1,610 nucleotides of DNA from Escherichia coli (GTDB taxonomy: Bacteria > Pseudomonadota > Gammaproteobacteria > Enterobacterales > Enterobacteriaceae). The notes under the pieces were generated by a model. The model ran no database searches, was not told where the DNA came from, and saw only the letters and a list, made by a program, of their open reading frames with translations. Location: assembly GCF_003334405.1 (NCBI RefSeq), contig NZ_QOWM01000042.1; one strand, written 5' to 3'. Below, one piece after another: positions 1 through 1,610 of the stretch. Within the stretch, counting starts at the first letter, position 1. Every line of letters starts with the position of its first letter. A program made the position numbers and the translations under genes.

Positions 1-1610
1 ACGCTGGCGCGGCTGTGGGGGGCGCTGCCGCCGGATATCCGGTTAAGCCCGCATCTTTACCTGGCGACCAACAGCGCACAGGGGCCGTGGTGGATACTGG
101 GGTGGTCTGAGCGGGTGCCGGGTGCTGAGGACGTACTGCCAGCGCCGCTGCCGCCGTACCGGGTGCTTACCGGGATGGCGGACCGCTTCGGGCGGACGCT
201 GACGTACCGGCGTGAGGCCGCCGGTGACCTGGCCGGGGAAATCACCGGCGTGACGGACGGTGCCGGGCGGGAGTTCCGTCTGGTGCTGACCACGCAGGCG
301 CAGCGTGCGGAAGAGGCCCGCACCTCTTCGCTATCTTCTTCTGACAGTTCCCGCCCTCTCTCAGCCTCAGCGTTCCCCGACACACTGCCCGGTACCGAAT
401 ACGGCCCCGACAGGGGTATCCGCCTTTCGGCGGTGTGGCTGATGCACGACCCGGCATACCCGGAGAGCCTGCCCGCTGCGCCACTGGTGCGGTACACGTA
501 TACGGAAGCCGGTGAACTGCTGGCGGTATATGACCGCAGCAATACGCAGGTGCGCGCTTTCACGTATGACGCGCAGCACCCGGGCCGGATGGTGGCGCAC
601 CGTTACGCGGGAAGGCCGGAGATGCGCTACCGCTACGACGATACGGGGCGGGTGGTGGAGCAACTGAACCCGGCAGGGTTAAGCTACCGCTATCTTTATG
701 AGCAGGACCGCATCACCGTCACCGACAGCCTGAACCGGCGTGAGGTGCTGCATACAGAAGGCGGGGCCGGGCTGAAACGGGTGGTGAAAAAAGAACTGGC
801 GGACGGCAGCGTCACGCGCAGCGGGTATGACGCGGCAGGAAGGCTCACGGCGCAGACGGACGCGGCGGGACGGAGGACAGAGTACGGTCTGAATGTGGTG
901 TCCGGCGATATCACGGACATCACCACACCGGACGGGCGGGAGACGAAATTTTACTATAACGACGGGAACCAGCTGACGGCGGTGGTGTCCCCGGACGGGC
1001 TGGAGAGCCGCCGGGAATATGATGAACCGGGCAGGCTGGTATCGGAGACATCGCGCAGCGGGGAGACAGTACGCTACCGCTACGATGACGCGCACAGTGA
1101 GTTACCGGCGACGACAACGGATGCGACGGGCAGCACCCGGCAGATGACGTGGAGCCGCTACGGGCAGTTGCTGGCGTTCACTGACTGCTCGGGCTACCAG
1201 ACCCGCTATGAATACGACCGCTTCGGCCAGATGACGGCGGTTCACCGCGAGGAAGGTATCAGCCTTTACCGCCACTATGACAACCGTGGCCGGTTAACCT
1301 CGGTGAAAGACGCACAGGGCCGTGAAACGCGGTATGAATACAACGCCGCAGGCGACCTGACTGCCGTTATCACCCCGGACGGCAACCGGAGCGAGACACA
1401 GTACGATGCGTGGGGAAAGGCGGTCAGCACCACGCAGGGCGGGCTGACGCGCAGTATGGAGTACGATGCTGCCGGACGTGTCATCAGCCTGACCAACGAG
1501 AACGGCAGCCACAGCGTCTTCAGTTACGATGCGCTGGACCGGCTGGTACAGCAGGGCGGCTTTGACGGGCGGACGCAACGTTATCATTATGACCTGACCG
1601 GAAAACTCAC
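1..1610 (+). CDS. rhs: Rhs-family YD-repeat protein, conserved core region (partial at both ends; internal fragment of a much longer ORF)
   Basis: Seen in sequence: frame 1 (position 1 = first base of a codon) is open through 1608 with no stop codon; I translated it codon by codon. Translation includes ...RYRYDDTGRVVEQLNPAGLSYRYLYEQDRITVTD..., ...TRSGYDAAGRLTAQTDAAGRRTEYG..., ...VRYRYDDAHSELPATTTDATGST..., ...TRYEYDRFGQMTAVHREEGISLYRHYDNRGRLTSVKDAQGRETRYEYNAAGDLTAVITPDGNRSETQYDAWGKAVS...MEYDAAGRVISLTNENGSHSVFSYDALDRLVQQGGFDGRTQRYHYDLTGKL. Established knowledge: this YD/RHS repeat signature defines Rhs/teneurin/TcC-type shell proteins, and the sequence matches my recollection of the E. coli-type Rhs core. 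Family-level symbol only; the paralog letter cannot be assigned from the core. True start and stop are outside the window. Confidence 0.93.
322..378 (+). other. Ser-rich low-complexity segment (TSSLSSSDSSRPLSASAFP) within the CDS; likely flexible linker preceding the YD-repeat region
   Basis: Seen in sequence: codons 322-378 translate to TSSLSSSDSSRPLSASAFP. The DNA here is a pyrimidine-rich tract (cacctcttcgctatcttcttctgacagttcccgccctctctcagcctcag) with T/A-ending serine codons (TCT, TCA), unlike the G/C-ending codons elsewhere. The linker function is inference. Confidence 0.5.
487..1608 (+). repeat. Array of ~17 degenerate YD (RHS) repeats, conserved at protein level, within the Rhs core CDS
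   Basis: Seen in sequence: consecutive units at approx 487-552, 553-624, 625-684, 685-780, 814-876, 877-942, 943-1005, 1006-1068, 1069-1137, 1138-1200, 1201-1263, 1264-1326, 1327-1395, 1396-1455, 1456-1515, 1516-1575, 1576-1608+. Each has an aromatic-rich start (RYxYD / YxYD / EYD) followed by G(R/D/Q)(L/V/M)(T/I/V). Unit boundaries are approximate. At nucleotide level the units are diverged, apart from short shared codon strings such as cgctaccgctacga. Possible additional RHS-like unit upstream at ~181-290 (FGRTLTYRREAAGDLAGEITGVTDGAGREFRL). Confidence 0.75.

Follow-up and report, generated by a model that had tools for sequence, protein, structure and literature searches.

The closest solved structure to RhsD, a known toxin shell of Escherichia coli, is Tse5 of Pseudomonas aeruginosa (PDB 8cp6; E = 4e-121 by sequence, template modelling (TM) score of 0.85 by fold). 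In Tse5, residues 48–124 form the N-terminal plug and the remainder forms the barrel, while the shell surface bears lineage-specific protrusions, one of which is invisible in the map (PMC10684867). RhsD displays the same plug, barrel, and aspartyl-protease-plug architecture. Here, we analyzed a stretch of 1,610 nt of E. coli DNA (contig NZ_QOWM01000042.1, hereafter "the window"), which is part of the core of the long-known rhsD gene, and within it a Ser-rich segment of 19 residues that the original prediction had placed between the N-proximal region and the YD repeats, as a possible disordered hinge or a hotspot of length variation. Structure prediction, homolog alignment, and composition make it likely that this segment is the hypervariable, probably disordered center of a ~40-residue enterobacterial insert, located in one of the connections between hairpins within the first turn of the RhsD beta-cocoon. 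The features on which the argument draws are the following, with confidence given as the predicted local distance difference test (pLDDT) where available.

1–1610, + strand: part of the rhsD core open reading frame (ORF), RhsD residues 154–690 (open frame, 99.9% identity to an annotated rhsD, RHS_repeat Pfam matches).
238–294, + strand: shell beta-hairpin ahead of the insert, with strand 234–238, a DGAGR turn, and strand 244–251 (ITGVTDGAGREFRLVLTT); pLDDT ~87–96, highly conserved.
295–336, + strand: predicted alpha-helix, RhsD 252–265 (QAQRAEEARTSSLS), the conserved first half of the insert, whose last five residues open the Ser-rich segment (both AlphaFold2 models).
310–329, + strand: potential RNA hairpin GAAGAGG-CCCGCA-CCTCTTC, followed by a pyrimidine tail (GCTATCTTCTTCT) to ~342 (terminator-like scan match).
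320–321, + strand: site of a 9-nt indel (TAAACAGCG) that adds KQR, KQH, or KPH (DNA and codon alignments).
322–378, + strand: the Ser-rich segment, RhsD 261–279 (TSSLSSSDSSRPLSASAFP); polypyrimidine, with TCN Ser codons, low-complexity, hypervariable, and predicted mostly as low-confidence coil.
379–417, + strand: conserved end of the insert, RhsD 280–292 (DTLPGTEYGPDRG), predicted as coil leading into the next strand (both AlphaFold2 models and alignment).
418–447, + strand: next shell strand, RhsD 293–302 (IRLSAVWLMH), conserved; pLDDT 94–97, aligned to Tse5 DDGLRLFGVIL.

RhsD was modeled twice with AlphaFold2, once over residues 1–1200 with an alignment of 48 diverse Rhs sequences, and once, independently, over residues 125–420 with a 55-sequence alignment rich in insert-bearing enterobacterial homologs. 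The first model (mean pLDDT 87.7, predicted TM score 0.80) matched Tse5 8cp6 with a target-normalized TM score of 0.85 (E = 2.8e-85), and the solved shells at large (Tse5, RhsA, Tse15, RhsP, and others) with target-normalized TM scores of 0.61–0.85, or 0.77–0.85 when Tse15 was left aside. Around the segment, both models gave the same local order: strand 244–251, which closes a hairpin with the preceding strand 234–238 and its DGAGR turn, then helix 252–265, coil 266–292, and strand 293–302. In the first model, mean pLDDT per 10-residue block went from 87 at residues 251–260 to 69 at 261–270, 60 at 271–280, and 71 at 281–290, and was back at 94 at 291–300. In the second model, built on the deeper enterobacterial alignment, pLDDT was <50 at residues 265–276. 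As modeled, the segment is thus a helix tail (residues 261–265 in both models) followed by low-confidence coil, within an inter-hairpin connection of the shell wall, in the first shell turn and ~140 residues beyond the plug. The disordered character first proposed for it is consistent with this coil of low confidence in both models (pLDDT 60–69 in the 10-residue blocks of the first). A second dip in pLDDT (61) was observed at RhsD 191–200 (window 112–141, within PGAEDVLPAPLPPY), in a Pro-rich and better-conserved loop between shell strands of the first shell turn.

The alignments place this connection at a site where Rhs proteins differ in length. The hairpin ahead of it (ITGVTDGAGREFRLVLTT) aligns to Tse5 LLTGVRDSAGRSYALVY and is conserved at most positions (column identity 0.65–1.0, except for E244 at 0.13 and R246 at 0.51). 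The two strands flanking the connection (TDGAGRxYRLxL and GxDSGxRLxxVxL) lie ~5–15 residues apart in Rhs proteins 35–47% identical to RhsD, and ~6 residues apart in Tse5. In enterobacterial Rhs, they are separated by a ~40-residue insert with conserved ends (TTQAQRAEEAR and FPDTLP-TEYG-D-GIRL), of which the Ser-rich segment is the center. At one end, QAQRAE is conserved in enterobacterial Rhs and missing from distant Rhs; at the other, P283, Y287, G288, D290, and G292 are 89–100% conserved. Between these ends, residues 261–279 had a mean column identity of 0.34 with 35% gaps, compared to 0.69–0.77 and ~1–4% gaps in the flanks. Across 105 homologs with both anchors, the connection ranged from 12 to 49 residues, with classes at 30, 33, 34, 38, 41, and 43.

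Variation was also apparent between close alleles. Other rhsD alleles have 9 additional nt at the 5′ edge of the segment, accompanied by clustered substitutions, and the 9 nt also occur in a different E. coli Rhs subfamily, whereas the window carries the deleted form; the longer class corresponds to the 80–90% identity band and includes 523 of 3509 E. coli records. Relative to an allele 97.8% identical over the window, 17 of the 35 differences fell inside 69 nt here, and the most divergent 60-nt bin relative to a 75%-identical RhsA/B/C-type core was again this region. Hence the segment is clearly neither a well-packed conserved strand nor invariant in length, and the suggestion of a hotspot for indel and length variation holds for both paralogs and orthologs. 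One further in-frame length variant lies in the helix ahead of the loop, where an RhsD-like allele (P0114, window ~307–321) carries a 7-residue tandem duplication, AEEARQQ AEEARQQ.

Compositionally, bases 322–378 encode TSSLSSSDSSRPLSASAFP, with 9 Ser among 19 residues and the codons initially described. At least 9 Ser in any 19-residue window occurred once in 20,000 shuffles of the 536-residue window translation, and the segment is the lowest-entropy 19-mer in the whole 1426-residue RhsD. Its Ser codons (four TCT, two TCA, and one each of TCG, TCC, and AGT) contrast with those elsewhere in the 1280-codon core (42 AGC, 11 AGT, and 19 TCN; Fisher p = 0.0005 for TCN vs AGY, or p = 0.0018 in the window alone). 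In this respect, the proposed local switch in codon usage is real; however, the associated contrast in G + C content at third codon positions (GC3) is modest (0.53 vs 0.75–0.78 elsewhere, Fisher p = 0.036, z = −1.7) and not unique, as GC3 is equally low in several other rhsD windows. Pyrimidine richness is the stronger signal: coding-strand C + T reaches 77%, against 43.5% elsewhere (z = 4.7) and at most 67% in every other 19-codon window of the core, and 13 of the 19 codons carry a C at position 2, vs 22% elsewhere. Codons composed only of C and T specify only Ser, Pro, Leu, and Phe, and therefore the residue bias toward these four amino acids and the "codon switch" come down to one polypyrimidine tract. 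The latter is thus less a drop in GC3 than a polypyrimidine stretch in which NCN codons are abundant.

Next, we evaluated how loop alleles relate to each other. A motif S-[LF]-S-S-P-x-[ST]-P-R is shared by rhsD alleles, a second E. coli subfamily (KQRASSLSSPASPRSVSSSQVF, L006), and a Salmonella Rhs (L007) with 33 S/P-rich residues, which shows that the Ser-rich variants are homologous and old. The L006 and Salmonella loops also displayed a C + T content of 64–75%, a GC3 of 0.50–0.61, and TCN Ser codons inside the loop with AGC outside, while pyrimidine richness is lacking in the short RhsA/B/C-type loop QQAISGGTEPSA (C + T 47%). With the Ser-rich loops of L006 and L007 taken as outgroups, the window allele appears to be derived, having likely lost 9 nt (KQR) and changed two Pro codons to Ser (CCT to TCT and CCC to TCC), which would make it the most Ser-rich version. 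Overall, allele differences were mainly first-position changes among TCN, CCN, GCN, and ACN codons, and between two rhsD alleles the non-synonymous changes (S/A, S/P, S/T, and S/P) were concentrated in the loop.

These alleles are not confined to one genomic background. The loop allele KPHTASLSSPDSPRPLSAPSF was found in backgrounds that share 89% and 71% identity with RhsD, and divergence between the window and the rhsD-like allele L004 was patchy, with 9–17 differences per 60 nt at ~361–600 and 1021–1140, and 0–2 in many other bins. Taken together, this suggests that old loop alleles sit in flanks that have been exchanged or homogenized by recombination among rhs paralogs. At the same time, 2462 of 3509 E. 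coli records carried the 101-nt allele around the segment with at least 99% identity, and the remainder fell into discrete classes. The patchy divergence from rhsD-like alleles in general (L003 and L004) is the mosaic expected of gene conversion among rhs paralogs.

A scenario in which this insert (residues ~252–292) is a tolerant excursion of the shell wall could account for these patterns. The insert would leave the sheet through the conserved helix (QAQRAEEAR...), pass through an unstructured Ser/Pro/Ala/Leu-rich loop, and re-enter the sheet through the conserved FPDTLP-TEYG-D-G motif. The conserved ends (the helix and FPDTLP-TEYG) would anchor the insert while its center varies within a small, polar, pyrimidine-encoded alphabet. 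A weakly constrained loop of this type could drift through first-position changes in the network of Ser (TCN), Pro (CCN), Ala (GCN), and Thr (ACN) codons, along with small in-frame indels, and recombination may carry old, discrete loop alleles between rhs backgrounds. The loop is probably located on the outer surface of the shell, because Tse5 has surface protrusions and because the cavity must stay free for the toxin. Where the segment lies in the predicted fold, how low its model confidence is, how much it varies, and what it is composed of are all shown here, and we are fairly confident in the anatomy of a tolerant and flexible shell-wall excursion. That the loop is a tolerant spacer only, without a specific function, we infer with less confidence.

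Several observations weigh against this scenario. The outward position relative to the shell is drawn by analogy from the Tse5 surface protrusions (PMC10684867). Low pLDDT is partly due to the gappy alignment at the insert and is not proof of disorder, and the crude TOP-IDP scale ranks the window centered on residue 270 only 97th of 1406, i.e., a moderate disorder signal. Synonymous and non-synonymous differences are both raised in the segment, with too few sites to estimate the ratio of their rates (dN/dS), and old alleles combined with recombination fit this pattern better than plain relaxed constraint. Finally, the SLSSPxSPR motif is conserved from Escherichia to Salmonella, and the exact allele is stable (at least 99% identical) across the 2462 E. 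coli records mentioned above, which suggests that the loop is not free of constraint and may have a specific role.

Among alternative explanations, only one retains an appreciable, if small, probability, namely that the loop is a specificity-determining surface loop that contacts a partner such as a cognate VgrG/PAAR spike, a chaperone, or a component of the target cell, and whose old alleles are under diversifying or balancing selection. Such a loop would be consistent with old and stable alleles that fall into discrete types and form no continuum, with one allele being shared by different rhs backgrounds, with the clustering of non-synonymous changes between two rhsD alleles, and with the membrane-binding role assigned to lineage-specific protrusions of the Tse5 shell (PMC10684867). 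However, the loop has the composition usual for unstructured spacers, synonymous differences are raised too, some homologs lack the loop entirely, and no vgrG adjoins K-12-type rhsD loci. To our knowledge, no partner of the loop is known. In its most explicit form, an exposed specificity determinant (e.g., for spike loading or target-cell contact) whose small number of ancient allele classes would be maintained by balancing or diversifying selection while gene conversion shuffles them among rhs paralogs, this explanation seems rather unlikely.

We attribute a similarly low probability to a foreign or mosaic origin, in which the codon switch would reflect a short acquired piece of DNA or a junction between rhs lineages. 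The composition of the tract is unlike that of the GC-rich core, divergence is patchy, and loop alleles are common to several backgrounds; moreover, in one protein (P0095), VgrG and Rhs are fused at E257/E258, immediately 5′ of the segment. Yet a stretch of 57 nt is too short to derive an origin from composition, the tract is homologous in Escherichia and Salmonella Rhs, which makes it an old, endogenous feature of the family, and P0095 is represented by only one sequence, from a 1.2-kb contig. Recombination among paralogs is itself part of the shell-wall excursion scenario and no alternative to it. As to the fusions themselves, P0095 (E. coli, window ~310–315) joins the N-terminal part of VgrG to the Rhs shell at ...NLNRE/EARTSSLSSS and could be a fusion created by deletion or else a chimera of the assembly, and P0041 (E. 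coli, window ~205) similarly joins the N-terminal part of VgrG to the Rhs shell at ...DQEGQ/YRREAAG.

The initial suggestion of a flexible Ser-rich interdomain hinge, which would tether an N-proximal domain to the YD-repeat shell and let both move relative to each other, now appears improbable. The low-complexity Ser-rich composition and low predicted confidence are as expected for such a hinge, and Pfam-recognizable RHS repeats start only downstream (~320), so that the segment does precede the repeats in this sense. However, the shell itself starts upstream: the plug already ends at ~123 (48–124 in Tse5), predicted shell beta-strands begin at residue 131, and confident strands flank the segment on both sides, strands 244–251 and 293–302 belonging to one sheet rather than to an N-proximal region and a repeat region. 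These flanking strands match consecutive Tse5 barrel strands ~6 residues apart, and the whole insert is missing in some close homologs, such as an Enterobacter protein (P0096) with a 12-residue connection, which is incompatible with a required tether.

A simple-sequence contingency tract, in which the CT-rich run would frequently slip during replication and switch rhsD length or frame, is highly improbable: short runs, (TCT)3 and CTCTCTC, are present, in-frame indels separate alleles, and some database proteins are frameshifted across the tract, but the 101-nt allele is nearly uniform in the E. coli records cited above and the others fall in discrete old classes, and the frameshifted proteins carry frameshifts along their full length, which points to assembly errors. 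Tandem Repeats Finder reported no tandem repeat array, even at a score of 30, and local direct and inverted repeats were short chance matches, so a slippage origin was rejected; phase variation was ruled out by allele stability over the 3509 records. The proteins in question (P0052, P0094, and P0102, window ~100–700) are in the +1 or +2 frame over the tract (e.g., YLLLTVPALS) and are frameshifted far away from it as well, as in error-prone assemblies.

An RNA element, i.e., the hairpin at 310–329 and its U/C-rich tail acting as an intragenic terminator or pause site, can be given equally little credence, since the terminator-like match (−12.1 kcal/mol, z −2.3), also retained as an equally stable hairpin in the +9 allele with the 9-nt indel in the hairpin loop, stands against 0.6 such sites expected over the whole window (1 observed), a tail broken by C, a 101-nt region no more stable than shuffles (z −0.53), a location within a translated ORF, and a GAAGAGG/CCTCTTC complementarity that is automatic where Glu codons adjoin a pyrimidine tract. 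The hairpin probably arises incidentally, from purine-rich Glu codons adjoining this tract. No Rfam match was obtained at E ≤ 1, and no internal promoter was found near the segment. A sigma-70-like match within the ORF at window 1562–1590 (TTGACG, 17-nt spacer, CATTAT; 9/12) corresponds to chance, with 1 observed vs 0.3 expected over the window. Alternative-frame and antisense ORFs over the segment (305–442 on the + strand, 242–484 and 57–563 on the − strand) were discarded as ordinary spurious ORFs of a GC-rich gene.

The identity of the gene is clear. The whole 1610 nt are open in frame 1 of the + strand, with zero stop codons, and are 99.9% identical over their full length to the annotated rhsD of E. 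coli PigCaeca_1 (NZ_CP039298), and 99.6% identical to K-12-type rhsD; around the segment, 101 nt match MG1655 at 100% identity. Of 5426 complete E. coli genomes, 3624 contain 80% or more of the window, mostly at several paralogous places. In NZ_CP039298 (locus L001), rhsD lies at 5542–9822 and L001 base 6001 corresponds to window base 1, i.e., codon 154 of the 1426-residue RhsD; the gene is flanked by ybbP and ybbC (ybbP-rhsD-ybbC), as in K-12. Eight RHS_repeat matches (Pfam PF05593, E ≤ 0.001) were detected at RhsD residues 365–678, with weaker matches from ~320. Beyond the window, the L001 translation includes a DUF6531 plug at residues 46–123 (Pfam, E = 5e-18) and the C-terminal DPxG-x18-DPxG aspartyl-protease motif. 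Near-identity, repeats, plug, cocoon fold, and DPxG-x18-DPxG motif all identify the protein as an Rhs core. No vgrG or hcp was found in the 5.5 kb upstream of rhsD at L001, and the Salmonella Rhs homolog L007 has hcp and vgrG immediately upstream. Also beyond the window, at RhsD residues 47–56 (L001 5682–5710), P48-VNPLLGAK aligns residue by residue with the N-terminal autocleavage site of Tse5 (between K47 and P48, PVNPMLGSK). This resemblance in sequence suggests that RhsD may also be cut at this site, freeing a PAAR-like N-terminal fragment of 47 residues.

Overall, the segment is real, explained, and ordinary: the gene is long known, lineage-specific shell protrusions of Rhs proteins are already documented, and the present analysis gives a structural place and an evolutionary description to a low-complexity patch, which in itself matters little. 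The apparent codon switch is a polypyrimidine tract rather than a sign of foreign origin or regulation. For practical purposes, the loop would probably tolerate tags or insertions in RhsD-type shells, is a handy allele marker for rhs paralog typing, and should be masked in Rhs core alignments. Only if it were a partner-specificity determinant would it be new for Rhs biology, as a second and hitherto unnoticed polymorphic site in addition to the C-terminal toxin tip. The literature searched contained no description of this particular RhsD loop.

With regard to known systems, the window protein does not differ in substance from E. coli K-12 RhsD (rhs element core protein, rhsD-E subfamily), being the same gene at the same locus. 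Among solved structures searched by sequence with the local 148 residues, only Tse5 matched, itself without the insert. Unlike RhsD, Tse5 has ~6 residues at this position, and its own protrusions (141–167, 873–914, and 1031–1062) are located elsewhere and consist of amphipathic helices, whereas the RhsD segment is a Ser-rich coil. Enterobacterial paralogs, including the RhsA/B/C type, resemble RhsD in their conserved flanks and in carrying the insert at the same place. Their loop cores nevertheless differ from that of RhsD in length and sequence, that of the RhsA/B/C type being QQAISGGTEPSA and that of another E. coli subfamily KQRATSLSSPAGPRSASSSS; Salmonella has a 33-residue S/P-rich core, and the Enterobacter homolog has none. 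Low complexity, the lack of confident predicted structure, and variable length and sequence place the segment among disordered low-complexity loops; it does not lie between two separate domains as an interdomain linker would, nor does it show either hallmark of a contingency repeat. Accordingly, the segment resembles the Ser/Pro/Thr-rich linkers of other bacterial proteins in composition, low complexity, predicted disorder, and length variability, but where these linkers join separately folding domains, the segment of RhsD is an excursion within the wall of a single beta-sheet.

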